A stretch of DNA of 64,000 nucleotides from Endomicrobiales bacterium (GTDB taxonomy: Bacteria > Elusimicrobiota > Endomicrobiia > Endomicrobiales > CAWCFT01), in contig CAWCFT010000006.1 in assembly GCA_963794945.1 (NCBI GenBank), positions 32,001-96,000 on the forward strand, given 5' to 3'. Both the position numbers and the translations under genes were made by a program. Numbering within the stretch: position 1 is the stretch's first letter; each line of letters opens with the position of its first letter. This document shows positions 2,432 through 28,686 of the stretch, piece after piece. The notes below the pieces were generated by a model. That model did no database searches, was not told the origin of the DNA, and saw nothing but the letters and a program-made list of their open reading frames with translations.

Positions 2432-2443
2432 TACAACCTCCAG

Positions 2444-2478
2444 AAGCTGTAAGTTATAAGCTTTAAGCTGTAAGAAAA
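2444..2478. repeat. Heptamer array arm (TAAG-NNN)x5 downstream of four-helix-bundle gene
   Basis: aagctgt aagttat aagcttt aagctgt aagaaaa. Confidence 0.9.
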
Positions 2479-2484
2479 ATCAAT

Positions 2485-2838
2485 TCACGGCTTCAGTTTC
2501 TTTTCCAATCCTGTTATCATCCTACCAATCTCTTCACATTCAGCATTAAGTCGCTCAAAATCTTTCTTCTCAATATAATTCAGATCCTTGCTTAATATTA
2601 AATGATATTTTGTTTCTTCAAGAGAAGTTTCGGCAATGTTTAGAAAATGAATAAACTCTTTAGTGCTATTTTTTTTACATCCTTCTACAATATTGGTAGG
2701 AATTGAGCTCGCAGATCGCCTGACCTGCGAGACAATACCAAACTTCTCTTCTTCGGGAAATCTCTTTGTAATTGTATAAATAGCTAACACCAAACTATGC
2801 GCTTTTTCCCAAACTTTAAGATTTTTAAATATTGCCAT
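2485..2838 (-). CDS. Four helix bundle protein (TIGR02436 / 23S rRNA IVS protein / Avd-like fold)
   Basis: FKNLKVWEKAH..YTITKRFPEEEKFGIVSQVRRSASSIPTNIVEG..F..FLNIAETSLEETKYHL family motifs; visibly more AT-rich than neighbours. Confidence 0.93.
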   Translation of the reverse strand: MAIFKNLKVWEKAHSLVLAIYTITKRFPEEEKFGIVSQVRRSASSIPTNIVEGCKKNSTKEFIHFLNIAETSLEETKYHLILSKDLNYIEKKDFERLNAECEEIGRMITGLEKKLKP

Positions 2839-2852
2839 TTTAATATCAGATA

Positions 2853-2942
2853 TAAGCCGTAAGTTTTAAGCTATAAGAAAAATCTAAATCTTTATGGGCT
2901 TTTATTTTTGACTTTTCTTACAGCTTATAGCTTACCGCTTAA
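2853..2942. repeat. Heptamer inverted-repeat element
   Basis: taagccg taagttt taagcta taagaaaa ... ttttctta cagctta tagctta ccgctta; last unit contains purN stop. Confidence 0.92.
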
Positions 2943-3527
2943 AGCCTGCCGTTAATAATTTTAAGTATAGCTTCGGGATAAAGCTTGTGTTCTACTTCCA
3001 AAACCCGCTCCGCCAATGTTTCCGGCGTATCGGCCGCAAGCACCGGTACTTTCATCTGCGCCACAATATTGCCGTGATCGTAATGTTCGTCAACCCAGTG
3101 AACAGTGGCGCCGGATTCCTTCTCTTTAGCGGCGATAACGGCTTCGTGAACAAAATGGCCGTACATCCCTTTGCCCCCGTACTTGGGCAGAAGCGCGGGA
3201 TGGATGTTCACTATCTTGAAACTGTTTATAAGCCCGGGCTCAAGCTTCAAAAGATAGCCTGCCAGGCAGAACAAGCTCAACCCTGTGTTCAGTCAGCCTA
3301 TTTTTTATCTCTTCGCAGAAATCCCCTGCATCAAGATATTCTTTCCTGTCGATAAACACGGCCGGTATATTGTGCTTAACGGCCCTCTGAAGGCCGTACG
3401 CGTCTATCCTGTTGGATATGACTACCGCGACTTCAGCCTTGCCTTTGAGGATGCCGAACCCGCAGGCGTCTAATATCGCCTGAAGGTTGCTTCCACCGCC
3501 CGATATCAAAACTCCGAGCTTTACCAT
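2939..3527 (-). CDS. purN: Phosphoribosylglycinamide formyltransferase (frameshift near 3280, probable sequence error)
   Basis: LISGGGSNLQAI in 3240..3527; LAGYL, NIHPALLPKYGGKGMYG, SGATVHWV in 2939..3280. Confidence 0.93.
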
Positions 3528-4483
3528 TTATACGAGTTCCACGCCTTTTTTGCCTTTTTCTACGGACCCTATTATTATTGAGCCTTTGAGGTGTTTGAGA
3601 GTTCTCTCAGCGGCCGACGGGCGTACTATAACCGCCATGCCGATACCCATGTTGAGCGTCCTGTATATTTCCTTATCAGGCACGTTCCCTTTGTTCTGTA
3701 TGACGCGGAATATCTCCGGCACGTTCCATGATCTTTTGTTTATGGCGACCTTGCAGCCTTCCGGCACAATTCGGCCGATCTTATCGTAGAAACTGCCGCC
3801 GGTTATGTGTGCAATACCAGTGATAAGGGGTAAGCTGTAAGGGGTAAGTAAAGACAAAATCTCTTTGACATATATTCTGGTTGGAGCAAGAAGCTCTTTG
3901 GAGTATTTCTTCAGTTCTTTTGTCGAAAATACCTTACGTATAAGCGAGTAGCCGTTCGAGTGCGGGCCTGATGAAGGCAGCCCTATTACTACGTCGCCCG
4001 GGTGCATCTTTTTGCCTGTTATCTCTTTTCCCTTCTCCAGGGAACCCACCGCGAAACCCGCGAGATCGTATTCCCCGGGAGGATAGAAACCCGGCATCTC
4101 GGCTGTCTCGCCGCCTATGAGTGCGCAGCCGGAAATATCACAGCCTTTTTTAATGCCGGATATAACATTTTCGGCAAGGTTGACATCAAGCTTTCCACAG
4201 GCGAAGTAGTCTAAGAAGAAAAGCGGTTTAGCACCGCAGCAGATTATGTCGTTAACGTTCATTGCCACTAGGTCTATACCCACGGTGTCGTGCTTATTTA
4301 AAAGGAACGCTATTTTGAGCTTGGTCCCGACGCCGTCCGTAGAGCTTACGAGGTTATATTTCGTGCCCGCCAGTGGGAATGCCCCGCCGAATCCGCCGAT
4401 CTTGGGAAGTTTACTCTTCACCGCCGCACCAGCTCGTTGCCCGCGTCGATGTTTACTCCGGCCTTTCTATAGGTGACCTTCAT
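3528..4483 (-). CDS. purM: AIR synthetase (frameshift near 4425)
   Basis: ATG 4483 gives MKVTYRKAGVNIDAGNELV; then GGFGG, STDGVGTK, GIDLVAMNVND, GGETAEMPG, HSNGYSL, AHITGG. Confidence 0.95.
3821..3852. repeat. Heptamer array arm embedded in purM coding sequence
   Basis: tga taagggg taagctg taagggg taagtaaa, encoding LLTPYSLPLI on minus strand. Confidence 0.8.
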
Positions 4484-4501
4484 TATAACTCCTTAATTTA
4501 T

Positions 4502-4603
4502 TAGCTATAAGCTGTAAGCTTTAAGCTATAAGAAAAATCTTATAAATACATACGCTTACGATTTTTGTCTTTTCTTACAGCATATAACTTATAGCTTATA
4601 ACT
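4502..4603. repeat. Heptamer inverted-repeat element between pyrE and purM
   Basis: tagcta taagctg taagctt taagcta taagaaaa ... ttttctta cagcata taactta tagctta taact. Confidence 0.92.
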
Positions 4604-4606
4604 ATT

Positions 4607-5182
4607 TTACTTCCTGCTTCCCGGTTTTATTGGCGACCCGCCTTCCTTACACATCGGGCACTCTTCTGCTTTGTAGCTTTTTACTTCTAGGCTGAGCAGC
4701 GACGAGCGCGGCACGCCAAAATCAACTTTTCCGCCGGAGCGGTCAACAAGGGACGCGACCGCGACGATCTCAGCGCCCAGCGGCTTTATAGTGTCTATTA
4801 CTTCTCTTGTTGAAAGGCCCGTAGTTATCACGTCTTCTACCACGAGGCACTTCTCGCCTTTTTCAACACTGAAACCGCGGCGGAGTGTGAGCTTTCCGTC
4901 AACCCGCTCGCAGAATATCGCGCGGCAACCAATCTGCGCCGCCACTTCCTGGCCGACCACGATACCGCCTAAGGCCGGTGAAACCACAACATCTATGTCC
5001 GGGACATCCTTTAATATCTTGTCTGCGAGAAGCGCGGCGAGCTTTTCCGCTTCCGCCGGATGCTGGAGTATCAACGCGGACTGGAAATACGTGTCGGAAT
5101 GGAGCCCGCTTGAGAGCAGAAAATGTCCGCTCAACAACGCGTTGTTCTTTTCAAATAATTGTTTTACTTCTGAATCTTTCAT
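4607..5182 (-). CDS. pyrE: Orotate phosphoribosyltransferase
   Basis: GHFLLSSGLHSDTY, VVEDVITTG PRPP motif. Confidence 0.96.
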   Translation of the reverse strand: MKDSEVKQLFEKNNALLSGHFLLSSGLHSDTYFQSALILQHPAEAEKLAALLADKILKDVPDIDVVVSPALGGIVVGQEVAAQIGCRAIFCERVDGKLTLRRGFSVEKGEKCLVVEDVITTGLSTREVIDTIKPLGAEIVAVASLVDRSGGKVDFGVPRSSLLSLEVKSYKAEECPMCKEGGSPIKPGSRK

Positions 5183-5204
5183 TATATCCCCTTTCGCTAG
5201 ATAT

Positions 5205-5292
5205 CAGCTATAAGCTGTAGGCTTTAAGCTATAAGAAACTTCGATTTGCGACTTTTATTTTCTTACAGCTTATAACTTATAGCTTACAACTA
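5205..5292. repeat. Heptamer inverted-repeat element between pyrF and pyrE
   Basis: cagcta taagctg taggctt taagcta taagaaa ... ttttctta cagctta taactta tagctta caacta; overlaps pyrF stop. Confidence 0.92.
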
Positions 5293-5946
5293 TTTTGTTG
5301 ATGCTTTTTCTATTTCTTCCGTCATGATTTTTGCTGCTTCCACTGGGTCAACCGCTTCTATCACAGGCCGGCCAACAACTATAAAGTTCGCTCCGGCCCT
5401 TATCGCGGCGGCAGGGGTGGCTATTCTTTTCTGGTCGTGCTTGTCTTCGTTCGCCATCCTTATGCCGGGCGTTATTACGCCAAACTCGCTGCCGCAGGCT
5501 TTCTTAATATCCTCTATTTCGTGCGGTGAAGATATCACGCCGTCCATGCCGGACTTTTTCGCAAGCAGCGCCCGTTCGCGCACTACCACCGGGTCGACAG
5601 GCTGGCTGGTGAGCACCGTGACCGCCCATAACCTCGGATGATTCGGCACAAACGCTGCCTCTTTCATCATGATCTCGCCGCCAGCTGAATGGAGGGTTAG
5701 GCTGTAAACACCTAGCTCCGACGCCGATTCAACGGAACGCTTGACAGTCTGCGGTATGTCGTGGAACTTAAGGTCAAGAAAAACCTCGTTGCCGCCCTGT
5801 TTTATTTGTTTAATAAGTTCCGGGCCTTCCTTGAGAAAAAGTATCGGGCCCACCTTGAATATGTCGACGTACGGCGAAAGTATCTCAACCAGGTACATTG
5901 CCCTGTCCTTATCTTTGACGTCAAGCGCTACTATCATCTTTTTCAT
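5290..5946 (-). CDS. pyrF: Orotidine 5'-phosphate decarboxylase
   Basis: IVALD, FKVG, FLDLKFHDIPQT, ITPGIR, VVGRP; ATG 5946 with GGAG upstream. Confidence 0.96.
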   Translation of the reverse strand: MKKMIVALDVKDKDRAMYLVEILSPYVDIFKVGPILFLKEGPELIKQIKQGGNEVFLDLKFHDIPQTVKRSVESASELGVYSLTLHSAGGEIMMKEAAFVPNHPRLWAVTVLTSQPVDPVVVRERALLAKKSGMDGVISSPHEIEDIKKACGSEFGVITPGIRMANEDKHDQKRIATPAAAIRAGANFIVVGRPVIEAVDPVEAAKIMTEEIEKASTK

Positions 5947-5966
5947 AACTGCTCCCGGGAAATAAT

Positions 5967-6108
5967 TCAAAAATCAAACATCAAATATAAAAATTATAGA
6001 TAATATCCCCAGCAAAACTAATGATTGTTTCTATTGTTTTTTCTTGTTTGCGAATTAATTTATAAATATTGGCCTGTTTTTGATCTTTGATTTTTAATAT
6101 TTGATATT
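5967..6108. repeat. Second-type heptamer inverted repeat (TCAAANA)n
   Basis: tcaaaaa tcaaaca tcaaata taaaaat ... tttttga tctttga tttttaa tatttga. Confidence 0.75.
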
Positions 6109-6112
6109 GCCT

Positions 6113-8161
6113 TTACTTTACGGGATGCTTTATTATATAGTCCGTAACCGCGAGCGCGGATTTGAAATGCTTCAAAAGTTTCTCGTGTTCGGCGTCCGGC
6201 TGGGCTGGCTTTAAGAGCCTTCTTGACGACTGGTCCCACACATAATAAGACACAACGTTATTCTCAACGAAACAGCGCAGCGCCCTGTCCTTCGACATCA
6301 CGAGCCCGTCAACATTGAAGGCTATGTGCTTTGTATTCTTATCAAGCATGTCCCCGCCTAGCGAAGCATACTGTTGCCCGGACAGCGAGAGGTTGTAAAG
6401 CGTAGCCATAATATCCAGGTGCGAGCCGAACGTGTCCTTGTCTATATCGCGGGGCTTTAGGCTTTCGGGAATATAAAGGTAGAACGGCACACCGTCCAAG
6501 TCAAGGTAGCGTTCTTTGGGGTAATCGAAAACGCTCCAGAAATTGTGGTCGCCCGTTACGGCGATTATCGTGTTCTTGCCGAGCGACGAGGCTTTTATCC
6601 TCGATATAAGTTCGCCCAGCTTATTGTTTGAGTACTGATAAGTCTCGAACCGCATCTTAGCGAGCTTCATGTCGCCCGTGATGTCTTTCCGCAGCTCTGG
6701 CGAAATATTGAGCGGCAGAAGCTTGTAGTCCGCCGGCAGCGAATAAGGCGGGTGGTTTGTCGTTGTCATCGTGAATATGAACTTGGGTTTGCCGTTATTT
6801 TTCGAGAGCCTGTCGTATATGTGCTGGAAAAGATACTCGTCATAGACACCCCACTGGTTCTTCGGGAATCTCGGGTCCATAGAACCCGCGCCCTCTGCTG
6901 AATCAAAACCAAGGTTTCCGGCGAACATGAATACGTTCCTCCAGCCGGCGTTGCCTCCGTAAAGGAATATCGTCTCATAACCAGCCCGCTTGTAAGGCAC
7001 CGCTGCGCCCGTGAAATAGTAGTTGTAGGCGAACTTCGACTGCGTAACGGCCTTAGCGGCCGGCCTCTTTGGCATGCTTAATATGGCCGTTTCTATACTG
7101 CCGATCGTTCCGACATCTCCGGAAAGAAAGTTATAGAACACTGTATCAGAATCGAAATGTTTCTTCAGCTCGCCCATGACGTTGAACTCAGGCGAATTGT
7201 AATGCAGAAGGTCAGAGCCGAAACTCTCCATCATTATGAATATTACGTTGGGCCTTGTCTTTTCGATCGCAACGCTCTTTTTTGTCGTTCTTATCACGCT
7301 CTCCTGAAGGGCTTCCTTGTTGAGCTTTGAAGCGGGAACGTCCAGAAAATCCGAGAATGCGCGCACCGGGTCGTCGGAATAGCCAACCTGTTTGGAAATA
7401 TCGTAGCTTCCGTTCTCTTTCATTCTGGCCTCTAAGGCTTCCTGAAAGGTATATATTCCGTTAATAGACACTTTGTTTATGAAAATGTCCGGCGATATCT
7501 CGGCGTCCATCGTACCCAGCGGGAAAAGCCCGAAACCGCCCCTCGCTGCAATGACGTTGCAGGCCAGAAGCCCGCCGAGGAAAAAGAATTTTATCAGGAA
7601 CGGGTACCGCTTGTGGCTGTCGTGCTCGAGATCTACCTGGTTTGTGAAATGGCTTGTTATAAAATAAACGATCGAGATGAGCACTAGGAAAATAAACGAA
7701 ACCAGCGGCACGTTATAGTTGTCCGCTATAGTGGAAAAAAGCGCCTTAGTATCGTCTTCCAGAACACCGAAAATGATTATGTTTATGTGGTTCTTAAAAT
7801 AAGAGAAAAAGCCAAAGTCCACACAAAGCAGTATAAAAATAAATGAGAACATAAGAACGTAGTAGGCTTTTGCCGCGGACAACCAGAATCTGAAAACTTT
7901 TGTGCTCCCGATGGCGGAAACTACTATCAGCGTCAAAACTACCAGCATGTTGACATAAGCTACTACACCCAGGTCAAACCTCACACCCATATAAAAAGCT
8001 TTAAAAACGTATATCCAGAGTCCACTTGATGTTTTCAAGCCGCCGTAGTATACGAAGAAGACAAGTCTAAAGACGGACATAAGAAGAAGGAACACCGCGT
8101 TCGCTAGTAAAAGTTTTTTAACCGAATCTATCACGGCCCCGAAAGGAAGGTATTTGTTCAT
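6113..8161 (-). CDS. LTA synthase family / sulfatase-like membrane protein
   Basis: N-terminal TM helices, PNVIFIMMESF, WGVYDE, TTTNHPPY, TGDH. Confidence 0.88.
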   Translation of the reverse strand: MNKYLPFGAVIDSVKKLLLANAVFLLLMSVFRLVFFVYYGGLKTSSGLWIYVFKAFYMGVRFDLGVVAYVNMLVVLTLIVVSAIGSTKVFRFWLSAAKAYYVLMFSFIFILLCVDFGFFSYFKNHINIIIFGVLEDDTKALFSTIADNYNVPLVSFIFLVLISIVYFITSHFTNQVDLEHDSHKRYPFLIKFFFLGGLLACNVIAARGGFGLFPLGTMDAEISPDIFINKVSINGIYTFQEALEARMKENGSYDISKQVGYSDDPVRAFSDFLDVPASKLNKEALQESVIRTTKKSVAIEKTRPNVIFIMMESFGSDLLHYNSPEFNVMGELKKHFDSDTVFYNFLSGDVGTIGSIETAILSMPKRPAAKAVTQSKFAYNYYFTGAAVPYKRAGYETIFLYGGNAGWRNVFMFAGNLGFDSAEGAGSMDPRFPKNQWGVYDEYLFQHIYDRLSKNNGKPKFIFTMTTTNHPPYSLPADYKLLPLNISPELRKDITGDMKLAKMRFETYQYSNNKLGELISRIKASSLGKNTIIAVTGDHNFWSVFDYPKERYLDLDGVPFYLYIPESLKPRDIDKDTFGSHLDIMATLYNLSLSGQQYASLGGDMLDKNTKHIAFNVDGLVMSKDRALRCFVENNVVSYYVWDQSSRRLLKPAQPDAEHEKLLKHFKSALAVTDYIIKHPVK

Positions 8162-9072
8162 GATTTTAGTTTTCCTTTTATGTCTTTAAGTGACGTAAAT
8201 TTCTTCCCCCTGAGATATTCGCGCAGGCCTTCCGATATGTTGGGTCCGGCGTCAGGATCGACGAGGCTCGCCGTCCCGACACTCACGGCGCTCGCGCCGG
8301 CTATAATGAACTCGGCCGCATCTTCGCCTGACGATATACCGCCGCCGCCTATGACCGGAATCTTAAGGCTTTTTACGGCTTCCCAAACGCAGCGCAGGGC
8401 AAGCGGCTTTATGCATGGGCCCGAAAGGCCTCCAGTAACGGTCGAAAGCCTCGGCCTGAACGTGTGCGCGTCTATGGACATACCGGGAAACGTGTTTACA
8501 AGCGAAACAGCGTCGGCACCCGACTTTTCCGCGAGCATTGCGGCCGCGGCTATATCCTGCACTTGCGGCGAAAGTTTCGCGATTATAGGATGATGTTTCG
8601 TCTTGGAAGTCTTTTTGATTATCTCGGCGAACAGTTCTTCATCCTGACAGATGATCTTCTTCTTGAGATTCGGGCATGAAAGATTGAGCTCTATGGCGGA
8701 AATGAACTTTATCTGGTTGAGCAGGGTAACGAGAGCGACATACTCCTCTGACGTCGAACCTGCAACGCTGACAATTATGGGCACGCCAAGTTTTTTAAGA
8801 TCGTCCAGTTTCTCATCCATGAACCTCTCAAAACCGACGTTCTGGAGCCCGATCGTGTTGAGCATGCCGCTCGCCGTCTCGCATATCCTCGGCGGCGGGT
8901 TGCCAATCCTCGGGCCTAGTGTTATAGTCTTCGTGATTATAGCCCCGATCCTGGACATATCCACGAGATCGGTGAGCTCATCGCCGTACCCGAAAGTCCC
9001 GGAGGCAGTTATAACGGGACTTGTTAATTTTATCCCGGCTATTTCAGTTGATATATCAATTTTTGAGTTCAT
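8158..9072 (-). CDS. pyrD: Dihydroorotate dehydrogenase 1B catalytic subunit
   Basis: ASGTFGYG, GNPPPRICET, ELNLSCPN, GGLSGPCIKP. Confidence 0.95.
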   Translation of the reverse strand: MNSKIDISTEIAGIKLTSPVITASGTFGYGDELTDLVDMSRIGAIITKTITLGPRIGNPPPRICETASGMLNTIGLQNVGFERFMDEKLDDLKKLGVPIIVSVAGSTSEEYVALVTLLNQIKFISAIELNLSCPNLKKKIICQDEELFAEIIKKTSKTKHHPIIAKLSPQVQDIAAAAMLAEKSGADAVSLVNTFPGMSIDAHTFRPRLSTVTGGLSGPCIKPLALRCVWEAVKSLKIPVIGGGGISSGEDAAEFIIAGASAVSVGTASLVDPDAGPNISEGLREYLRGKKFTSLKDIKGKLKS

Positions 9073-9086
9073 GATTTGATTGTGTT

Positions 9087-9115
9087 TTTACTTACCGCTT
9101 ACAACTTATCACTTA
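9087..9115. repeat. Lone heptamer array arm between pyrK and pyrD
   Basis: tttactta ccgctta caactta tcactta. Confidence 0.82.
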
Positions 9116-9126
9116 TATAGCTGTCG

Positions 9127-9867
9127 TTAAAATATTTCTTCTATCCTAAACACCGGCCCATCCTTGCAAACCATCTTGTAGGTTTCGCCGGACCTTACCG
9201 CGCAGCCCTGGCAGTTTCCCACGCCGCATGCCATTTTTTCTTCCAGCGAAACAAAACCCTTTAATTCAAAATCCTTGGCTATCTGGGTCACTTTAGCAAG
9301 CATTGCTATCGGGCCGCAGGTGTACAGCACTGTATCGCCAAGCTCTTTACCAACAAGGTAATTCTCGAATATGTCGGTTATCACACCCTTATATCCCGCA
9401 GAACCGTCATCCGTAGCTAGTTCCATTTTCCAGCCGAGCTTCCTGAAATTGTCGAGGCAGACAAGCTCCGTGCGGTTCTTGGCCCCGTAGAAAAGCAGGC
9501 CTGGTTTGTGCAATTTCTCAGCGAGGTAGTTAAGCGAAGCGATGCCCGTGCCACCCGCCACAAGAACTGGTAGCCTGCTGCCCGCGACGTCTTCTAGGCT
9601 GTAGCCGTTGCCGAGGGGTCCAAGGACGTCAATCCTGGCACCCGGCAGTAGCTGCGAAAGGAAATTCGTCCCTTTGCCGACGCTCTTGTATAGGAATTCC
9701 ACTTTGGAGCCGGAAACGGAGTAGATGCTGAGCGGCCTGCGCAAGTACGAGCCGGGGATCTTTAGCATGCAGAATTGCCCCGGACACGAAACCCGTGCCA
9801 GATTTTCCGCCTCAAGAAGGATCCTGTAATAGCCCGGGCATATCTGAACGTTTTCCCGTATTGCCAA
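9127..9867 (-). CDS. pyrK: Dihydroorotate dehydrogenase electron transfer subunit (start uncertain)
   Basis: LRRPLSI, GPLGNG, AGGTGIA, MACGVGNCQGC...CKDGPVF. Confidence 0.93.
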   Translation of the reverse strand: MAIRENVQICPGYYRILLEAENLARVSCPGQFCMLKIPGSYLRRPLSIYSVSGSKVEFLYKSVGKGTNFLSQLLPGARIDVLGPLGNGYSLEDVAGSRLPVLVAGGTGIASLNYLAEKLHKPGLLFYGAKNRTELVCLDNFRKLGWKMELATDDGSAGYKGVITDIFENYLVGKELGDTVLYTCGPIAMLAKVTQIAKDFELKGFVSLEEKMACGVGNCQGCAVRSGETYKMVCKDGPVFRIEEIF

Positions 9868-9875
9868 TGATTGAT

Positions 9876-11160
9876 TTACTCTTTTATGGGCCAGGCGATC
9901 TTACCTCCAACAATTGTAACCTCCGCCCTGCCTTTTAGCTTCCTTCCGATGAAGGGCGAGTTCTTGCTCTTTGAAACAAAATCTTTAGCTGAAAATATGT
10001 ATTCTATATCAGGGTCTATTACAGTTATATCGGCTATGGAGCCGGCCTTGATCGTCCCGCGGCCCTCGAGCCCGAAGATCTTAGCCGGGTTTACGGCAAG
10101 CTTTTCAACGACTTGACCCCAGCTTAGGACTTTATTATCTACCAGTTCCGTGTTCACAAGCGTAAGCATTGTTTCCAAGCCTATTATACCGAAAGGAGCA
10201 AGGTCGTATTCTTTATTCTTCTCTTCCTCCGTGTGCGGCGCGTGGTCGGTGCATATACAGTCGATGGTCCCATCAGCGAGGCCCGCTTTTATGGCTGCGA
10301 TGTCGTTTTGAGAGCGGAGCGGAGGGTTCATTTTCGTGTTAGTATCATAGTTCTTTACTTCCTCATCAGTCAGAGAGAAATAATGCGGGCACGTTTCGGC
10401 CGTGACTTTTATGCCTTTCCTTTTTGCCTGACGAACGAGCTCGACAGAACCAGCGGTCGAAACGTGCGCTATATGGAGGTGGCCTCCGGTAAGCTCCGCC
10501 AGCATTATGTCGCGGCTGTATCATTATCTCTTCGGCCTGCCTCGGAATGCCGCGAAGCCCTAGCACCATGGACGTGTGGCTATCGTTCATCGCGCCGCCT
10601 TTTGTAAGGTTCTTGTCTTCGCAGTGCGCTATAACCGGCAAGCCGAACATTTTTGTGTACTGGAGCGCGCGCCTCATTACCTGGGAATTCATTACCGGCA
10701 TGCCGTCATCTGAGACCGCCACTACACCGGCCTTCTTAAGCACTCCTATTTCCGCGAGCTCTTCGCCCGCCGAATTTTTGGTTATACAGCCTATCGGGAA
10801 GACATTCACATGCCCTTCTTTCTGGGCTTTCATGAGAACGAACTCTACCGCCGGCGCATTGTCGAGCGGCGGATGGGTGTTCGGCATGCAGAATATCGTA
10901 GTTATTCCGCCGTGGGCCGCGGCCTTCGTGCCGCTCTCAATGGTTTCTTCCTCTTCATGTCCCGGCTCGCGCAAATGCGTGTGTATATCTATGAGCCCCG
11001 GGACTACGATTTTGCCTTTGGCTTCAATAACTTTGGCATCGGAGGTCTTGATATCAGGCTTGACCTCAAGTATCTTGCCGTCCGCGACAAGCACGTCGGC
11101 CACGCCTTCGAAATTGGCCGCCGGGTCTATAACCATCCCGCCTTTGATCAGTATCTTCAT
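9876..11160 (-). CDS. pyrC: Dihydroorotase (frameshift near 10520)
   Basis: [34 protein letters not shown] across two ORFs. Confidence 0.94.
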
Positions 11161-12125: not shown

Positions 12126-12180
12126 TTTAACCTCTGGTATAATATTTTATACCGCAATGAAGGCAAGCTGATGCCTTTAC

Positions 12181-12741: not shown

Positions 12742-12752
12742 TATATTCTATG

Positions 12753-13304: not shown

Positions 13305-13329
13305 GGGTTGTCCGCCCTTAAAGAAGATG

Positions 13330-16132: not shown

Positions 16133-16149
16133 AATATTAATCCCAGTAA

Positions 16150-16213
16150 TAAGCCGTAAGCTGTAAGTTATAAGAAGACTTTTCTTACAGCTTACAACTT
16201 AAAACTTATAACT
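16150..16213. repeat. Heptamer inverted-repeat element with minimal loop upstream of purF
   Basis: taagccg taagctg taagtta taagaag ac ttttctta cagctta caactta aaactta taact. Confidence 0.92.
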
Positions 16214-16215
16214 TT

Positions 16216-16527: not shown

Positions 16528-16570
16528 ACCAGGCTCCTATAGATTGAAGTGTTAACTCGCTGTTGTTGGA

Positions 16571-17356: not shown

Positions 17357-17377
17357 TGATTTTTCCCTTGATTTTAA

Positions 17378-19799: not shown

Positions 19800-19822
19800 T
19801 TATTATCATCCTTACCTGGCTC

Positions 19823-20272: not shown

Positions 20273-20288
20273 GCTTTTCTTCCTCGAG

Positions 20289-21181: not shown

Positions 21182-21196
21182 AGATTCTCCGAATAA

Positions 21197-22236
21197 TTAT
21201 TTGTGAGCAACCAAAAGAATTGCCCTTGCTATCAACCCGCTAAGCAATGCCGTCACCGGAAGGGTAAGGACCCACGCGTATATGATCCTTAAGCCCACAG
21301 CCCACTTTACTGCTTTCATCCTTTTAGCGGTCCCGACACCCACGATGCTTCCGGTTATGGTGTGCGTTGTGCTTACCGGGACACCCATGGCAGAGAGCAA
21401 CCTTCGAGCACAAAGGACGCTGAAAGTTCAGCTGACGCTCCTTCTATCGGCCTTAGGTGTGAAAGCTTTTTACCGAGCGTTTTGATCACAGCCCGGCCAC
21501 CTACCGCCGTGCCGAGCGACATAGATAGCCCGCAGATAAGCATTACCCATATAGGGACGTTCACATTCTTAAATTCCGCCGTGCCGAAATAACCTCCTAC
21601 GAAAAGCAGGAGTGTTATTACGCCCATGACTTTCTGCGCGTCGTTCTGCCCGTGCATCAGCGACATCAATGAAGATGTGAATATCTGCAGTACCGAGGCG
21701 CCTTTGTTGACGAGTTTTGGGCGAAAAAATGAGGCTAACGAATAATTGATCGTTAATATGGCGTGCCCTATTATAAGGCCCGATATCGGTGAAATGAGCA
21801 TTGCCAGCATTACCTTCGTTATGCCGGACATCACTACCACTTTGAAACCGAATACGGAAACAGCCGCTCCAACAAGCCCTCCGATGAGCGCATGGGACCC
21901 GGAAACCGGCAGGCCCTTAAAAACAGTATATATCTCCCATAATATTGCCCCTAGCATAGCAGCCAATATCACGTACATGCCGTCACCGCTATTTATGACC
22001 GAAGGGTTGACTATACCGCCACCAATAGTTTTTGCCACTTTAGTGCTAAGTAAAGCTCCGGCGAAATTAAGCACCGCCGCAAGCATTATTGCCGTCGAAG
22101 GCCTTAATACTCGAGTCGAAATGGCGGTAGCAACGGAATTTGCAGTATCATGCCAGCCATTCGCAAAATCAAAGGTGAGAGCCACAATAATTACAGCCCA
22201 AACAAATACCGGTATATGCTGCATTGAAGCGATCAC
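21197..22236 (-). CDS. pit: PiT family inorganic phosphate transporter (frameshift near 21400)
   Basis: NGWHDTANSVAT, PVSGSHALIGG, HGQNDAQK, GVPVSTTH. Confidence 0.92.
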
Positions 22237-22255
22237 GAATGTTCCTTGAAAGCTG

Positions 22256-22889
22256 TTACGTATATTTAAATATTATGGACTCAACGTTCATGGCCGTCTG
22301 GTTGCATTTATCCAGCGCACGCTCCATCTCTTCAAGTATTTCCTTGAACTTTATGACATATAGCGGGTCTTTGCCGCCCTTGAAAAGCGAGGCCAGGACA
22401 TCATGATATATCTTGTCGCCTTCCTCTTCATAATATTTTATACTTTTGCATATTTCAAGCACTTTTCTGTCAAGTTTCTCTCCTGAAACAGCGCGTATTG
22501 CGTTCGCCGTCTCATGACATGCCTGGTCCAGTTTATTAGTCAAGTTTACCACATCCGGCAGCATTTCGGTCACGCTGTAAAGAGATGTCCTTCTCGCCGC
22601 GGCATCCATAAAATCTATTATATCATCGAGGTCTGAAGCAAGCTTATGAATATCTTCCCTGTCGTAATTTACGATAAATGTCCCCTCGAGCCAGTTCATA
22701 AGTTCGTGAGTGATATTATCAGACTCATGTTCGATATCTTTCATCTTGTTCACCCAATCTTCGACGCCGGTTACGTTAAAAGCATTTATGAACCTGGTGA
22801 ACTCATCAGAACGCCTTATCAAGGACGGTGGCGTAGCCGAGCATGTATTTTTCGAATTCAGTTTCTCTGCAAAAGAATTTCTTGAACAT
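22256..22889 (-). CDS. DUF47 phosphate transport regulator (frameshift near 5' end)
   Basis: EHESDNITH, DREDIHKLASDLDDIID, EEEGD; adjacent to pit; ATG 22889 with GAGG RBS. Confidence 0.88.
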
Positions 22890-22909
22890 TGATTTTCCTC
22901 TAAAAAATG

Positions 22910-24436
22910 TTACTCCCATTCGATAGTAGCGGGCGGCTTCTGCGAGATATCGTAAACCACGCGGTTGACACCGCGGACCTCATTGATTATCCTGTTCGAT
23001 ATCTTCCCTAATAGCTCGTATGGCAGCTTCGCCCAATCAGCGGTCATGGCGTCAGCCGATTCAACTATCCTTAAAGCTATAACGTTCTCATACGTGCGGC
23101 AGTCACCCATCACCCCTACGGTTTTTACCGGGAGTATGACAGCGAACGCTTGCCAGAGTTTTTCGTACAGACCGGCATTTCTTATTTCGTTTTCAACTAT
23201 GAGGTCGGCTTTACGCAATATGTCCAGGCGTTCTTTAGTAACTTCTCCCAGCACCCTTATCGCGAGGCCTGGCCCGGGGAACGGCTGGCGGGTGAGGATT
23301 TCGGTCGGGATGTTCAGCTCTTTACCCAGTTCCCTGACCTCATCTTTAAAAAGGAATTTCAGAGGTTCAACGAGTTTCATCTTCATTTTCGCGGGCAAAC
23401 CGCCGACATTGTGGTGGGATTTTATCACGGCGGACGGCCCTTTTACTGAAACACTTTCGATGACGTCGGGATAAAGCGTGCCCTGCATTAGGTAATCGAC
23501 TTTCTTGAGCTTCTTCGCTTCGTCGTCAAAAACCGCTATGAATTCATGCCCGATTATTTTTCTTTTTCTTTCCGGGTCCGTAACACCCGCAAGCTTTTTA
23601 AGGAACCTATTGCTTGCGTCCGCGACAATGAGGTTATTCTTGAATTTCTTTCCGAATATCTTTTTTACCCTCTCTTTCTCGCCTGAACGCAGTACGCCAT
23701 TATCGACAAAAACGCAGGTCAGCTGGCTGCCCACGGCCTTGTGGACAAGGACAGCAGCTACGGAAGAGTCCACTCCGCCCGAAAGCCCGCAAAGCACTTT
23801 ACCTTTTCCGACCTTCAGTTTGATGCGTTTTAGCTCTTCAGAGATAAAGTTATGCATGGTCCAATCGGCTTTCGCACCGCAGACCCCGAACACGAAATTC
23901 TTGAGGATATCTTTTCCTTGCACGGTATGTTTTACTTCGGGATGGAATTGCACGCCGTAGATCTGGCGTTTCCGGTCGGCTATAGCAGCGAAAGGAGAGT
24001 TAGCGGTTGTCGCGATCTTCTCGAAACCCCGGGGCATCTTCGAGAGAGAGTCACCGTGGCTCATCCATACAGTCGGATCCGTGATGTTACCAAATAATGA
24101 TTTTCTTGTCTTTATATTGAGCTTCGCAAGCCCGTATTCGCGATGGTTGGAACGTTTTACCTTGCCGCCATACTGCTCCGCGATGAGCTGCATGCCGTAA
24201 CAGATGCCGAGTATCGGCACTCCAAGGTTCCAGACCCTACCGTCAGGCCACGGCGCGTTCTTTTCATAAACAGACGAAGGTCCGCCTGAGAGTATGACAC
24301 CCCTGACATTTTCAAGCGACCCAAACGTCTTTATATCCCTGTTGCCCGGATATATCTCGCAATAAACTTTTAATTCCCTTATCCTGCGCGCGATCAACTG
24401 CGTGTACTGTGACCCAAAATCAAGAATTAATATCAT
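22910..24436 (-). CDS. guaA: GMP synthase
   Basis: [43 protein letters not shown]. Confidence 0.98.
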
Positions 24437-24475
24437 TGATTACCTTTCTAGATATATTTTTGCACTTATTCCGAA

Positions 24476-25636
24476 CTATTTACACATACCGATCTTCTGG
24501 GCCTTCTGGAACAGCTTGCCTTCGTGCTTTATGTCAGGCGCTATTATAAGCTCGACCATCTGCATCTCTCTGATGTTCTTTGCCCCAACAGTTCCCATGC
24601 AGGTTTTGAGTGCGCCCACAAGGTTCTGTGTGCCGTCATCAAGCCTCGCCGGCCCGTAAAGTATCTCTTCAAGCGGCCCTGTTACTCCAACCCTTACCCT
24701 TGTGCCTCTGGGGAGATTATGATGAGGAGTCGCCATGCCCCAGTGAAAGCCTCTGCCGGGCGCTTCTTCGGTACGGGCGAACGCAGAGCCGACCATTACG
24801 GCATCCGAACCGGACGCGAAAGCCTTGCATATATCTCCACCTGAACTCATTCCGCCATCCGTAATAATTGATACATATTTACCTGATTTTTTGAAATAGA
24901 AATCTCTGGCAGCAGCGCAGTCAACGGTTGCCGTAACCTGGGGAACGCCTATACCCAAAACACCGCGCGACGTGCAGGCCGACCCCGGCCCGACGCCGAC
25001 AAGCAAAGCCGCGCATCCGCACTCCATAAGCTCAAGCGCCGCCTCATATGTAACTACGTTGCCGATTATTACTGGTATCTTCATGTCCAAGCAGAATTTC
25101 TTGAAATCCATCGCCTGATACTGAGTTGTTATGTGCCTCGCGGTAGTAACCGTCGACTGCACTACAAAGAGGTCGGCGCCTGCTTCCTGCGCCAGCTGGC
25201 CGAAACGGACTGCGTTGGCCGGAATGCACGAAACAGCGGCGTATCAGCCGCCTTTTTTTATCTCTTTTACGCGCTGGCCTACAAGTTTTTCTTTGATAGG
25301 TTCTTTATATATGTCCTGGACAAGCGCCGTAGCTTCTTCGGGAGAAGCTGACGCGATCTTGTCAAGTATTATCTCGGGTTTTTCGTAACGGGTCTGTATG
25401 CCGTCCAAATTGAGTACCGCGAGCCCGCCCTGTTTGCCCATGGCGATTGCGAACTTCACGTCAACAACACCGTCCATGGCGCTGGCTAGGAACGGTATGT
25501 CGAGCTTGACATTGCCCAGGCTTACTGCGATCTCCACTTCTTCGGGGTTCACCGTAATATTGCCCGGAACGATAGCTATCTCATCAAATCCATAAGCCCT
25601 GCGGGCTTCCCTGTCACGTCCGATAAAAAATGCCAT
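24476..25636 (-). CDS. guaB3: GuaB3-family IMP dehydrogenase-related protein (frameshifts about 25160-25250)
   Basis: IGRDREARRAYGFDEIAIVP, SAMDGVV, GVGPGSACTSR, HWGMATP. Confidence 0.88.
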
Positions 25637-25652
25637 TTACAACCTCCAGTTG

Positions 25653-25720
25653 TAAGCTATAAGAAATAAGCTATAAGAGTGATTTTTCTTACAGCTTAAA
25701 AACTTATGGCTTATTGCTTA
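25653..25720. repeat. Heptamer inverted-repeat element between dcd and guaB3
   Basis: taagcta taagaaa taagcta taaga ... ttttctta cagctta aaaactta tggctta ttgctta. Confidence 0.88.
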
Positions 25721-25722
25721 GT

Positions 25723-26274
25723 TTATATTTTTGCGTGTGTGATATCTTTCTGCGCCTGATACTTTCCTTTTTTATCCGCGTATGATGTCTCGCAAACTTC
25801 ATCAGACTCAAGGAAAATCACTTGCGCGATACCTTCGTTGACGTACAGTTTGGCCGAAGCAGGCGATGTGTTTGATATGCTCATAGTAACATATCCCTCC
25901 CACTCAGGCTCAAAAGGAGTGACGTTCACTACAACACCGCACCGGGCATACGTTGATTTTCCGAAGCATATGGTAAGGATCTTACGCGGAATCCTGAAAT
26001 ACTCGACCAAACGGGCGAGAACGAACGAATTAGGCGGCAACTCAATATATTCCTTCGCCTTAACTTCGCGGAACAGAGCCGGATTGAATTTCTTTGGATC
26101 AAGCAGGTCGTTCTTCGAACCGTCAAATATCTTGAACTCATCAGCCACACGCATATCGTAGCCGTAAGATGACACTCCAAACGATATCTTCCCGTCTTTG
26201 ACCTGCTCAGGCGCGAAAGGCTCTATCATACCCTTCGCCCCCATCTCCCTTATCCACTTATCGTTTTTAATCAT
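25723..26274 (-). CDS. dcd: dCTP deaminase
   Basis: [35 protein letters not shown]. Confidence 0.95.
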
Positions 26275-26284
26275 TAGTTTATTT

Positions 26285-28584
26285 TTACCAACATTTACTG
26301 TAGCCGCAGCCCCTACAAACCACGCAGCCTTCGCCGAATTCAAGCATTTCGCCGCACTCGGGACACTGGGGGCATGAGCCAACCAGGTTCTGTTTGTTAA
26401 TGCTCACTGGTATAGCGGGTTTTACGTCCTCACCCGAAGCTGGTAGAGGCCGGTTAACGAACAACCCCGGTACTGATCTATCTTTTATATAGTTATCCAA
26501 GGCCTTGGCTATAGCATCAGCGCAGGACAATATGGCCCCGCCCTCAGCCAGTGTCGGTGACGGACAGCGTATGCCCTTGAGTTGGTATATTATTTCTTCC
26601 TGGCTTATGCCGGAACGCAGTGCCAACGAGATCAAGACGGCTGACGGCTTCCGCCTGCGAGGCCGTACACCCGCCTGACTTGCCGAGCTGCGTGAACACT
26701 TCGCACGCACCCTGCTCGTCTTCGTTGACCGTGACATACATCTTTCCGCAGCCAGTGTGCATGAGTAGTGTGGACCCGCGGGTGACCTTCGGGCGCAGTC
26801 TAGGGCGTCTCTCTTTGTACTCTACTTTCGCGCCGGCTTTCTTGCTGCCAACGTTTAAGACCTGCTCGTCCCGCGAACCGTCCCTGTAGACAGTTACGCC
26901 TTTGCAGCCGAGTTTGTAGGAAAGCTCGTATGCTTTTTCAACGTCTTCCTTAGTCGCGGTGTGGCCGAAGTTCACTGTCTTTGAAACCGCGTTATCTGTA
27001 TATTTCTGGAAGGCCGCCTGCATTCTTATGTGGTCTTCTGGGGAGATATCGTGGGAAGTTATGTAGACCTTCTTTACCTTATCAGGTATTTCCTTGAATT
27101 CCTTGATGCTGCCTTTTTCAGCTATTTTATCGATGAGTTCTTTCGAGTAAAAGCCCATATCCTTCGCCGTCTTTTCAAAGTAGGAGTTGACTTCGTACAT
27201 GTCCTGGTTATCAAGGCAGTTAGAACGCTTGTAGACCACAGCGAAATTCGGCTCTATGCCTCCGGAAGCTCCTGCGATTATACCTATCGTCCCGGTTGGG
27301 GCGATGGTTGTAAGCGTAGCGTTGCGCCGGGGGTCGCCGCTCGCGTAGACGCTCTTTTTAAAGTTAGGGAAAGCGCCTCTTTTGAGGGCGAGGTCTTCCG
27401 ACGTGCTCGCTGCCTTATCGTGGATGAACATCATGACTTTCTCGGCAAGTTTCAGTGCTTCGTGAGAGTTGTACGGTATGTTCATCTGAACCAGCATGTC
27501 CGCCCAGCCCATGACTCCAAGCCCTATCTTGCGGTTGGCCCTTGTCATTTCTTCTATCTTCTTTATGGGGAAATTATTCATGTCTATAACGTTGTCAAGG
27601 AAGTGAACTGCGGTCCTTGTGACCTTCTCTAGGCGGTCCCATTCGATAGTGCCGTTAGTGACGAAGTGGGAAAGGTTTATCGAGCCGAGGTTGCACGACT
27701 CGTAAGGAAGGAGCGGTTGTTCACCGCAGGGGTTTGTGGACTCTATCGCGCCTATCGCTGGAGTGGGGTTGCCGTCGTTCATCCTGTCAATGAAAACTAT
27801 CCCCGGCTCGCCGTTCTTCCAGGCCTGGTCTACTATTTTTTCCATAACTTCCTTGGCCTTGAGCTTTCCGGCTTCTTCTTTTGTCCTTGGGTTGTAGAGG
27901 CTGTACTCGGAATCGTCTTCCAGTGCATCCATGAACTCTTTAGTTATGCCTACCGATATGTTGAAATTGTTGAGGCTGTCATTCTTGGTTTTGCAGCTTA
28001 TGAAATCCATTATATCCGGGTGGTCTACGCGAAGTATGCCCATATTGGCGCCGCGGCACGTGCCGCCCTGCTTTATCGCTTCAGTTGCCGCGTTGAAAAC
28101 CTGCATGAAAGATACCGGCCCAGATGATACTCCGCTGGTCGAGTTTACTACGTCCCTGCTGGGGCGAAGCCTCGAGAAAGAGAAGCCCGTGCCGCCGCCT
28201 GACTTGTGTATGAGCGCTGTGTTTTTTAGAGTTTCAAAGATTGAGTCCATGGAGTCTTCTATTGGCAGGACAAAACACGCAGGAGAGCTGCTGCAGCGGG
28301 CGCCCCGCATTCATAAGTGTTGGCGAGTTAGGCAGAAAGTCCATAGTCGCCATCGCGACGTAGAATTCCTGCGCCGCCATTTCCACATCGGCGTTGGCAT
28401 CGTAATTCTTGTCTGCCTGGGCTATGTTCTCGGCAACTCTCCAAAAAAGCTCTTCGGGCTTTTCGGATACCTTGCCTTCGATATCCTTTCTCAGATACCG
28501 CTTTTCCAGCACAGTAAGCGAGTTTGACGTTACAACCGGTTTAACCTTTGCCAACAGCTCTTCGCGACTTGCACTCATGACCAT
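26285..28584 (-). CDS. nrdJ: Class II (B12-dependent) ribonucleotide reductase with fused TSCPD domain and Zn ribbon (frameshifts near 28300 and 26630)
   Basis: [88 protein letters not shown]. Confidence 0.93.
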
Positions 28585-28609
28585 TCTCTCCTCCGCGTTA
28601 CTTCAGGGA

Positions 28610-28686
28610 TAAGGGGCAAGGGTTAAGGGGTAAGTAAATTCTTTTTTGCTATTTCACTTACCGCTTACCGCTTATCACTTACCGCT
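28610..28686. repeat. Heptamer inverted-repeat element (G-rich subtype) between nrdR and nrdJ
   Basis: taagggg caagggt taagggg taagtaa ... ttcactta ccgctta ccgctta tcactta ccgctg. Confidence 0.88.

Follow-up and report, generated by a model that had tools for sequence, protein, structure and literature searches.

Dispersed imperfect palindromes in operon spacers are represented by repetitive extragenic palindromes (REPs), bacterial interspersed mosaic elements (BIMEs) and REP doublets forming hairpins (REPINs), which fall into lineage-specific families and in which one protein gene, that of the REP-associated tyrosine transposase (RAYT), is flanked by the repeats on which its product presumably acts. 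A second arrangement is that of the 23S rRNA intervening sequences (IVSs) of Leptospira and Coxiella, cassettes inserted in a 23S rRNA helix and cut out by RNase III; within such a stable-RNA transcript, a long inverted-repeat stem carries in its loop an S23p/PF05635 open reading frame (ORF), with the Pfam name 23S_rRNA_IVP. To our knowledge, descriptions of IVSs mention neither heptad-periodic stems nor empty dispersed copies, and we know of no role for the PF05635/TIGR02436 family outside diversity-generating retroelements (DGRs). Here we describe a family of hairpins built from 7-nt TAAG units in a 64,000-nt stretch of DNA from an Endomicrobiales bacterium (assembly GCA_963794945.1, contig CAWCFT010000006.1, positions 32,001 to 96,000 of the forward strand; the whole stretch is called the window below). 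One hairpin of the window adjoins a gene for a free-standing Avd-like four-helix-bundle protein of PF05635/TIGR02436, the family of the 23S rRNA intervening-sequence protein (4HB protein below), and we find that inverted arrays of 7-nt or 8-nt units are physically and phylogenetically coupled with PF05635 genes across phyla.

Tandem heptamers between bacterial genes have a long history of description. The short tandemly repeated repetitive (STRR) heptanucleotides of cyanobacteria were reportedly described by Mazel and colleagues in 1990, in an account that is said not to include hairpin pairing. Rehm et al. 2015 (PMC4692102) state in their introduction that heptameric repeats are over-represented in many bacterial genomes and mention there three repeated heptanucleotides of Calothrix PCC 7601. 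That paper describes GGGAATC arrays of Xanthomonas, which form convergent pairs on opposite strands (70 in Xcc and 75 in Xac), and GGGGA(C/T)T arrays of Nostoc, with the units discussed as quadruplex-forming. Row 27 of its supplement file 2 lists array #15, a run of four GGGAATC units that lies 6 nt away from bccP and extends over the start of XCC0516; because the study counts 242 of 4170 protein genes as repeat-associated, an overlap of this kind would arise by accident with a chance of ~6%. The words 'four helix' occur 0 times in the text of the paper and no protein partner is proposed. In Beggiatoaceae, cyanobacteria and Bacteroidetes, TAACTGA arrays of 2-6 intergenic units frequently stop a few bases short of a start codon (MacGregor 2015, PMC4679880); a protein partner acting post-transcriptionally is suspected there, with S1, Csp and CsrA as candidates, and four-helix proteins are unmentioned in the available portion of that article. 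Geobacter metallireducens carries elements of four (GGACCGG, 49 copies) or five (MTYCTGA, 15 sites) tandem heptanucleotides, which the relevant passages of Aklujkar et al. 2009 (PMC2700814) draw as looped pairs and propose to bind unknown global regulators.

On the protein side, Handa et al. (bioRxiv 10.1101/2023.10.23.563531) describe Avd as a pentamer 'similar to S23 ribosomal proteins'. The RNA element that it binds is an 11-bp imperfect stem-loop; all five protomers contact it, and bases flipped out of it are inserted in the inter-protomer crevices. As repeats, inverted heptamer arrays are therefore already known and their function is unexplained, and their coupling to Avd-like genes is undescribed as far as we searched: a literature search with most subscription journals outside its coverage showed, among the hits inspected, no paper joining heptamer arrays to PF05635, TIGR02436, Avd or IVS proteins.

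TAAG hairpins in the window and in the genome

The Endomicrobiales assembly (G000 below) comprises 2.9 Mb in 19 contigs and is 85.9% complete and 5.9% contaminated. We searched it for three consecutive units, (TAAGNNN)x3 or TAAGNNNTAAGNNNTAAG, taking 100 dinucleotide-preserving shuffles as background for the window and the reversed pattern as background for the genome. The window holds 23 overlapping matches compared with a mean of 0.00 in the shuffles, and the genome holds 165 (82+83) compared with 0 for the control. The initial annotation had picked out six complete elements and three lone arms in the window, and all of them lie at the positions that it gave, since a listing of period-7 TAAG runs finds exact arms of 3-4 units at every one of these sites. 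The genome-wide scan that it called for likewise shows arms in inverted rather than random arrangement. The 96 arms of G000 (exact units 4 in 63, 3 in 30 and 5 in 3) include 32 strict plus/minus pairs with loops of 9-83 nt, and when degenerate partners are allowed the genome contains ~44 hairpin elements and 20 lone arms. TAAG elements are thus a genome-wide structured family of heptad-periodic, imperfect hairpins. In the window, where every large ORF is on the minus strand, the elements and the gene associated with them are as follows, with folding energies calculated as RNA.

2443..2478, exact units 2450-2474 (+): lone arm, gAAG and four TAAGnnn units, then AAAAA
2485-2838, minus strand: 4HB gene, 117 aa; TIGR02436 141.7 bits (cut-off 24), PF05635 146.7 bits (cut-off 33.8), E 6e-43
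2847..2948, exact arms 2853-2877 (+) and 2917-2941 (-): complete hairpin in the purN/4HB gap; CAG and 4 TAAG units, a 39-nt loop and five mirrored units; -36.0 kcal/mol, z -6.7
3817..3852, exact units 3824-3848 (+): lone five-unit arm inside purM (3528-4487, minus), in frame
4501..4605, exact arm 4508-4532 (+): complete hairpin in the gap between pyrE (stop at 4607) and purM; right arm with one degenerate unit; -36.2 kcal/mol, z -5.7
5204..5293, exact arm 5262-5286 (-): complete hairpin between gene 5290-5970 and pyrE; left arm with one degenerate unit (TAGG); -32.7 kcal/mol, z -6.5
9087..9122, exact units 9091-9115 (-): lone arm, a TAAG arm in the sense strand, between the stop of gene 9127-9867 and the start of gene 8158-9072
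16143..16215, exact arms 16150-16174 (+) and 16184-16208 (-): minimal complete hairpin with a 9-nt loop; -29.3 kcal/mol, z -6.9
25646..25727, exact arms 25653-25677 (+) and 25703-25720 (-): complete hairpin 3' of a guaB3-like N-terminal ORF (25244-25636, minus); right arm with one 8-nt unit; -23.7 kcal/mol, z -5.1
28603..28688, exact arm 28657-28681 (-): complete hairpin in the nrdR/nrdJ-like gap; G-rich spacers GGG/CGG/TGA, left arm degenerate; -27.8 kcal/mol, z -4.9

The degenerate partner arms at 4588-4598, 5225-5235, 25688-25698 and 28624-28634 retain two exact units each. As RNA, the six complete elements fold with -23.7 to -36.2 kcal/mol and z scores of -4.9 to -6.9 against shuffled sequences, which bears out the folding that had been suggested as a check. 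Past 28,681 the window contains no TAAG arm, merely two 2-unit chance matches at 56338 and 62642, in agreement with the earlier remark that the 38-64 kb region lacks such arrays. The arm inside purM replaces a variable protein segment, which reads SLLTPYSLPLITG here and NLLKRERKSISA in the orthologue of relative G003; this in-frame five-unit arm indicates that arms can enter or convert coding sequence with the frame left intact.

Alignment of 95 arms on the loop-proximal TAAG gave a profile of five units, nCAGnnn followed by four TAAG-Y-K-R units. In the outer unit, nCAG, the A is present in 76% and the G in 72% of arms; the TAAG of the next unit is conserved at 81-96%, and the other three units are TAAG by selection of the arms. 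The arm of 4-5 TAAG units that had been described earlier was therefore right in its tetramer and its 7-nt register, and what it missed is the outer fifth unit (nCAG...CTGn), by which each element is ~7 nt longer on each side. Spacers are biased towards Y-K-R, the loop side opens A-rich, and on inspection the loop ends read AAAARTC ... GACTTTT. The spacers come in two flavours, CTN/TTN and GGG/TGG/CGG, with both arms of one element having the same flavour. The TAAG arm comes first (plus then minus) in 32 of 36 neighbouring arm combinations, an order that is true on both strands because the element is an inverted repeat.

The spacers had been said to vary even between paired arms. Pooled over the spacer this is so: paired arms show a complementarity of 4.75/12 and unrelated arms 4.55±0.30, and 545 of 2000 permutations are at least as high. 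The pooled signal is nil because a gain at heptad position 6 cancels a loss at position 7, so that the spacers are not free. Position 5 is neutral (Watson-Crick in 41/96 compared with 38.4 in 3000 permutations). At position 6, Watson-Crick pairs number 59/96 against 38.8±4.7 (0/3000 permutations as high), and at position 7 they number only 18/96 against 33.2±4.4 (0/3000 as low). When the 3' arm is slid by ±7 nt the Watson-Crick fraction at position 7 rises from 0.19 to 0.33. Mirrored units thus shun pairing at position 7 in a register-specific manner, an avoidance that only makes sense if the two arms come together in a folded hairpin. Judging from these sequence comparisons, the folded hairpin state is under selection with one enforced mismatch per heptad, at position 7, while the pairing of the arms consists of the 4-nt cores and, in part, of positions 5 and 6. 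In the TCAAA/TTTGA family introduced below (12 pairs) one position is also mostly mismatched (26/36), with a depletion that is not significant (160/2000 permutations as low).

None of the 44 elements lies inside a called gene (0/44). The observation that intergenic copies lie between co-oriented genes is correct for the window and does not amount to an enrichment in the genome, as 32 of 43 elements (74%) are so placed compared with 2236 of 2795 gene junctions overall (80%); we therefore rejected enrichment between co-oriented genes. Rather, the elements fill gaps: in minus-strand operons they usually begin ~<=10 nt past the upstream stop codon and end 5-25 nt before the next start codon. The 32 strict pairs often have, 4-10 nt beyond the CAG end, the complement of a GGAGG-like ribosome-binding site, which places the hairpin next to the Shine-Dalgarno sequence of the downstream gene.

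Comparison with known kinds of repeat agreed with the initial view that the family is unlike a terminator, REP or clustered regularly interspaced short palindromic repeat (CRISPR) element, and this extends to Rfam families and transposable elements of the miniature inverted-repeat type (MITEs). None of 17 terminator-like sites between 2000 and 17000 in the window overlaps an element, and Rfam covariance models gave 0 matches at E<=1 in window positions 1-30000. As regards target-site duplication, the longest direct repeat in the 16-nt outer flanks averages 3.84 compared with 3.76±0.16 (169/500 permutations are at least as high). Between cognate arms we found no gene other than the 4HB gene, in whose protein no transposase domain was detected, and none of the five PF01797 (Y1 transposase) hits in G000 is flanked by TAAG arrays. 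A CRISPR array is ruled out by 7-nt units, 3-nt spacers and inverted arms, as opposed to direct repeats of ~23-50 nt and unique spacers of similar length. The G-rich unit of quadruplex type is absent, since main-flavour TAAG-Y-K-R has no G run. What the family does share with the heptameric inverted simple-sequence repeats of the Xanthomonas GGGAATC type are both tandem 7-nt units and close convergent arrays on opposite strands. The claim that the elements resemble no standard kind consequently holds for the repeat classes just named and does not make them unprecedented, given the published inverted heptamer arrays of Xanthomonas and the paired-site tandem heptanucleotides of Geobacter.

Two further features of the window were observed. 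The sole non-TAAG period-7 stretch lies at 47149-47176 and consists of TCAAACT twice, then TACAACC and TCAACCC. Four genes within 30 kb look split, namely purN (2939-3527), the purM N-terminus (~4421-4487), a guaB3-like gene (24476-25636) and an nrdJ-like gene (26544-28584); their ORF pieces overlap or adjoin through frameshifts, and NCBIfam matches cover part of the model. These four may reflect indel errors in a metagenome-assembled genome rather than true pseudogenes.

Heptad arrays at four-helix-bundle genes

In the window, the order on the sense strand is TAAG arm, 39-nt loop, CTTA arm, 4HB gene and CTTA arm. The arm at 2443..2478, read on the sense (minus) strand, is a CTTA arm directly 3' of the 4HB stop codon, and the 'lone arm' 2444-2478 of the initial annotation is therefore the far arm of a gene-bearing cassette, which sits between purN and gene 1142-2431. 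As in 23S rRNA intervening sequences, a PF05635 ORF is bracketed by inverted repeats; no rRNA match was found in window positions 1-30000. The encoded protein matches the structures PDB 2gsc (XCC0516, 4.5e-17) and 2rld (2.5e-9), which have five chains each, and scores below the cut-off of the Avd equivalog model (NF033474, 46.6 bits compared with 80).

G000 carries five PF05635 genes, and the other four are flanked by different inverted period-7 arrays. Period 7 dominates the genome: triple 4-mer repeats number 729 at period 7 compared with 55-234 at periods 5, 6 and 8-11, and arrays number 298 compared with 94, 48 and 86 at periods 6, 8 and 9. The three largest heptad families, TAAG, TCAAA/TTTGA and ACAGATT/AATCTGT, each have exactly one 4HB gene in a cognate hairpin. 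The TCAAAnn ... nnTTTGA family has 72 arms, and its TCAAA arm comes first in 12 of 13 adjacencies. At least two families exist besides TAAG, of which ACAGATT/AATCTGT is small; example sites in G000 are:

C1:14668-14765
C8:21480-21568
C4:217267-217584, flanks

At two chimeric sites (C4:38518-38542 and C4:43828-43845) a TTTGAT-type arm and a CTTA arm, both of 3' type and of different families, stand side by side. One of three identical copies of an IS200-like (Y1_Tnp) element is found in the loop of an ATCAAnn/TTTGATn (TCAAA/TTTGA-type) heptad hairpin (G000:C11:110065-110427), which indicates that hairpin loops accept insertions.

The order was sampled through 40 relatives. We took 41 of their 68 PF05635 hits with 4 kb on each side, which together with the five G000 genes gave 46 genes, and scored the flanks by autocorrelation, defined as the number of matches over 21 positions at a given period, with a cut-off of 16/21 in this set and of 15/21 in the 80-locus set described below. 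Nearly all fetched 4HB genes of the relatives have short arrays in inverted orientation on either side, with a different core in each case (GTACAnn, GCAAGnn/CTTGnnn, ATAGCGn/CGCTAnn, TAGAGAn/CTCTAnn, CGGACTn, TAATGAG/ACTCATT and others), and in one family of genomes the flanking arrays have a period of 8. For 41 of the 46 genes the period that scores best is 7 or 8 in both flanks. At least one flank reaches the cut-off in 38 and both flanks do in 23, compared with 1.9% (period 7) and 0.85% (period 8) of 1874 control tiles.

TAAG arrays themselves are patchily distributed, with at least 10 matches in eight relatives (G001 175, G003 113, G004 53, G005 210, G012 12, G018 30, G019 23 and G021 31) and 0-2 in the other 32. 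PF05635 is present in 7 of the eight TAAG-rich relatives and in 12 of the 32 others. We also scored 573 kb from eight relatives without a PF05635 hit, where 3 of 3546 tiles reach 16/21 at period 7 and 1-8 tiles do so at other periods; in G000 the corresponding counts are 153 of 18141 tiles at period 7 and 1-15 at other periods. In the genomes sampled, arrays are absent where the 4HB gene is absent. A rule by which each array family has its own 4HB gene holds in G001 for both families checked, TAAG and ATAGCG. TAATGRG arrays are almost confined to the 4HB gene, where both matches in G001 lie (2/2), but three occur in G006 on contigs without a 4HB hit.

The gene order g8158-g5290-pyrE-purM-purN-4HB-g1142 is conserved in G003, G005 and G001, which allowed orthologous junctions to be compared. 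At the purN-4HB locus TAAG arrays flank the 4HB gene in 4 of 4 genomes of different families, with different spacers; because these orthologous flanks share both the TAAG cores and the 7-nt register, both are kept across families of the order. The proposal that selection acts on a periodic motif and not on perfect pairing is supported by this conservation, although pairing does matter, as the one enforced mismatch per heptad attests. Other junctions switch heptad family or lose the hairpin:

pyrE-purM junction: TAAG hairpin in G000, AGCGTAn hairpin in G003, ATAGCGn hairpin in G001, degenerate TAAG half in G005
g5290-pyrE junction: CTAAAnn/nnTTTAG hairpin in G003, nothing in G001

Since orthologous junctions carry different families, hairpins turn over between heptad families at one and the same junction.

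Beyond the order, a search with a six-row alignment gave 80 loci, which with the 46 genes above make 126. The 80 loci represent at least 10 named phyla and span Omnitrophota, Planctomycetota, Atribacterota, Bacteroidota, Patescibacteria, Cyanobacteria, Nitrospirota, Desulfobacterota, Elusimicrobiota, Gammaproteobacteria, SAR324 and Clostridia. Both flanks score at least 15/21 at period 7 in 36 of them and one flank in 28 more, compared with 4.9% of control tiles (n=648). Over all 126 loci, both flanks are arrayed at one period in 67, and in 64 of these 67 the flanks are inverted (at least 3 shared 5-mers with the reverse complement), compared with 4 of 67 in direct orientation. On average, flanks share 7.97 5-mers when compared as inverted copies, 0.75 in direct orientation and 0.81 after shuffling. 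The association with four-helix-bundle genes that had been noticed in the window is therefore much stronger and wider than the window itself shows. These counts overstate the independence of the loci, because the loci are kin and the 80 were chosen by similarity to one query. The TAAG family is a local member of a cross-phylum class of inverted arrays of 7-nt (in some clades 8-nt) units, the full form of which encloses a 4HB gene. The array architecture shared at 4HB genes suggests that protein and repeats work together.

The two flanks also differ in composition, the 5' array being purine-rich in 53 loci compared with 10, and richer in G than in C in 57 compared with 6. Stop codons in all three frames were considered as a rule for the 5' array and rejected, as they occur in 31 of 67 loci only. 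The downstream array closes all three frames in 12 of 67 loci, and many heptads contain TAG or TAA (nTAGnnn); such frame-closing stops may be functional or a by-product of composition.

Array sequence follows protein sequence. The fraction of pairs that share at least four 6-mers in their arrays is 85% at protein identities of at least 70%, 23% at 60-70% and ~1% below 40%, and across phyla the rank correlation between protein and array similarity is 0.126 (p 1.6e-14). Single-linkage clustering of heptads was rejected as a way of labelling loci, since 88 of 103 fell in one cluster. In a maximum-likelihood tree built quickly from 117 proteins the period (7 in 72 loci, 8 in 16) changes 9 times, compared with a mean of 15.05 and a minimum of 12 in 300 shuffles; this agreement between period and protein tree is indicative only, since kin share labels. 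One clade with SH-aLRT 98 unites loci with CGTGAAG/TCGTATC arrays from four phyla (Pirellulales, Omnitrophota, Smithellaceae, Sedimentisphaerales and Nitrospirae loci), and the TAAG loci form a clade of their own, also with SH-aLRT 98. In cyanobacterial genomes we counted 617 matches to GGGAANN x3 (control 0) together with 6 PF05635 hits in one genome, 282 (control 149) with 7 in another, and 41 with 5 in a third.

Several 4HB cassettes lie within transfer RNA (tRNA) clusters, in the order Cys-4HB-Val in three genomes (L002, L004 and L157) and Glu-4HB-Lys in one (L036), and others adjoin tRNA-Asn and tRNA-Met; L026 and L031 are also tRNA-associated. The heptads at the Cys/Val site are of GTAC type in two genomes and AACAATn in the third. 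Positions in tRNA clusters and operon spacers suggest co-transcription with the neighbours, and with it a need for the cassette to be folded away or excised from the transcript, as with the rRNA intervening sequences.

A candidate protein-hairpin partnership and its rivals

Arguing from sequence and by analogy with Avd, we put the odds as about even that the hairpins are nucleic-acid binding partners of 4HB pentamers. In such a putative partnership the folded hairpin would act in cis as the partner of a pentameric 4HB protein, probably as RNA within operon and tRNA-cluster transcripts, and its five heptads could each offer one unpaired base, at regular spacing, to one of the five protomer interfaces, as in the Avd of DGRs. 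The gene-bearing copy would resemble an IVS, a cassette housed in the loop of a hairpin, and each of the ~44 empty hairpins would be a stand-alone binding site placed after a stop codon and ahead of the following ribosome-binding site, where it may shape the processing or stability of polycistronic RNA. A fuller form of this proposal, which we advance as possible and only tentatively, is a widespread two-component system in at least 10 phyla, in which the ring would read five 7-nt units with one unpaired base per protomer interface, and each paralogue would have its own heptad 'address', encoded inside its own site.

A number of observations weigh against such a partnership. Of all 126 loci, 59 fall below the both-flank threshold, and the arrays at 4HB genes have a median length of 4 units with an interquartile range of 3-5, by a rough measure, and not a fixed five. 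The AGCG family of G003 has 28+79 matches, yet 0 of the 6 4HB genes of that genome have AGCG flanks; G019, with 23 TAAG matches, lacks a PF05635 hit, G018, with 30, has only a period-8 cassette, and G012, with 12, shows no TAAG-flanked gene among the 7 loci inspected. In view of these four genomes we rejected the idea that every array family has one master gene. As regards pairing, the covariation that the initial annotation had suggested examining is register-specific only as avoidance at position 7: the Watson-Crick fraction at position 6 is still 0.55-0.67 after the 3' arm is slid. We accordingly rejected position-6 covariation as proof of base pairing, as it survives a one-unit slide and reflects the two spacer flavours rather than unit-by-unit compensation. 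The position-7 mismatch does not discriminate between an RNA and a DNA form, being strand-symmetric (in 23 co-oriented elements the sense strand shows G·U 13 and A·C 12 times). For 21 of 32 elements folding is more favourable in the sense strand (Wilcoxon p 0.017), but we rejected this as evidence for RNA, because the minus strand is also better in 5 of 7 plus-strand contexts, which points to a general minus-strand bias. Finally, the Avd precedent works with a reverse transcriptase, and no PF00078 hit was found in G000, a genome that is 85.9% complete.

Two other accounts take the hairpins to be independent of a specific 4HB partner. The hairpins could be host RNA-structure elements, such as intercistronic stabilisers, RNase sites or insulators, in whose insertion-tolerant loops 4HB genes settle as selfish ORFs, as in 23S rRNA intervening sequences. 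The stable folds, the filling of operon gaps next to Shine-Dalgarno sequences, the IS200-like element in a TCAAA/TTTGA hairpin loop (G000:C11:110065) and the array families without a cognate gene in G003 and G019 all fit this account. It offers no reason for the missing period-7 excess in relatives without PF05635, for the way in which period (7 or 8) and array sequence go with protein clades, for the mismatch imposed on each heptad or for the presence of one particular gene family in the loops in at least 10 phyla, and we consider it rather unlikely. Alternatively, the elements could be mobile at the DNA level, in the manner of REPINs or MITEs, being moved in trans by a transposase or recombinase for which the heptads are subterminal binding sites, with the 4HB protein as passenger or accessory. 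Here the 44 dispersed and strictly intergenic copies, the patchy distribution (8 of 40 relatives with at least 10 matches), the different heptad families at orthologous junctions and the gene and arrays jointly common to cross-phylum clades are as expected, and the strand-symmetric mismatch fits a DNA hairpin. Mobility of this type is nevertheless hard to reconcile with flanks that show no target-site duplication (3.84 compared with 3.76±0.16), with the TAAG-free flanks of all Y1-transposase hits (0/5), with the lack of a reverse transcriptase hit in G000 and with a purN-4HB cassette that has kept its place in four families of the order; the gene-bearing form would also have to make a cruciform whose loop measures 450 nt, which is improbable. 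We regard it as distinctly unlikely.

The remaining two accounts deny the elements a specific role or give them a familiar one. Heptamers are over-represented among bacterial repeats, as the introduction of Rehm et al. 2015 (PMC4692102) notes, and the arrays might thus be functionless simple-sequence repeats made by slippage that lie near 4HB genes by chance. Slippage is contradicted by inverted pairing in 32 of 36 adjacencies and 64 of 67 cassettes, a fixed five-unit arm design, conserved cores with variable spacers across families of the order, register-specific anti-pairing and the absence of arrays from sampled relatives without a 4HB gene, which makes it very improbable. Bidirectional intrinsic terminators would likewise be symmetric intergenic hairpins. 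The stems of the TAAG elements are however A+U-rich, with the T run on the loop side of the stem rather than after it, none of the 17 terminator-like sites between 2000 and 17000 coincides with an element, and the majority of elements are found within apparent operons, a few bases ahead of a ribosome-binding site; termination can hardly be their function.

Should the partnership of hairpin and 4HB protein be real, its reach would be wide. An excess of heptamer repeats has been reported for decades in cyanobacteria, Xanthomonas, Geobacter and Beggiatoaceae without an agreed function, and the coupling to 4HB genes merges two puzzles into one hypothesis. The two-component form of it, if true, would account for the STRR repeats, the Xanthomonas GGGAATC arrays, the Geobacter elements and TAACTGA, and should every paralogue prove specific for a heptad of its own, the family would constitute a modular scaffold for nucleic-acid recognition. 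Culturable carriers exist in Flavobacterium species, among them F. reichenbachii DSM 21791 and F. resistens DSM 19382 (loci L087 and L091), in Xanthomonas campestris (XCC0516) and in Bacteroides thetaiotaomicron.

Comparison with described systems

Among the published heptamers, the GGGAATC arrays of Xanthomonas are, like the TAAG elements, tandem intergenic 7-nt units that are often convergent, and in the supplementary listing one array lies at a 4HB relative, XCC0516; the GGGAATC unit is G-rich, in contrast to TAAG units, which have no G run. The cyanobacterial STRR sequences resemble the TAAG elements as short tandem heptamers dispersed between genes. Four cyanobacterial 4HB genes (L080, L097, L102 and L111) are flanked by inverted GGCAGnn or GGGAAyr arrays, and cyanobacterial arrays can run longer than TAAG arms, to at least 10 units. 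TAACTGA repeats are almost all direct, with one inverted set among the 170 in the published account, whereas TAAG elements are inverted. The Geobacter elements differ from TAAG elements in their units and in having some copies within genes, and the passages that describe them name no gene partner.

Compared with REP/RAYT systems, the gene flanked by TAAG arrays encodes a 117-aa four-helix bundle in place of a Y1 transposase, the arms consist of 7-nt units in periodic arrangement, and the Y1 genes of G000 are unflanked. The cassette is closer to the 23S rRNA intervening sequences in that the same protein family lies within inverted repeats, but its sites are tRNA clusters and operon spacers, and the copy in the window is not in rRNA. 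DGR Avd offers a homologous pentameric four-helix bundle that binds an RNA stem-loop, known there together with a reverse transcriptase and TR/VR repeats.

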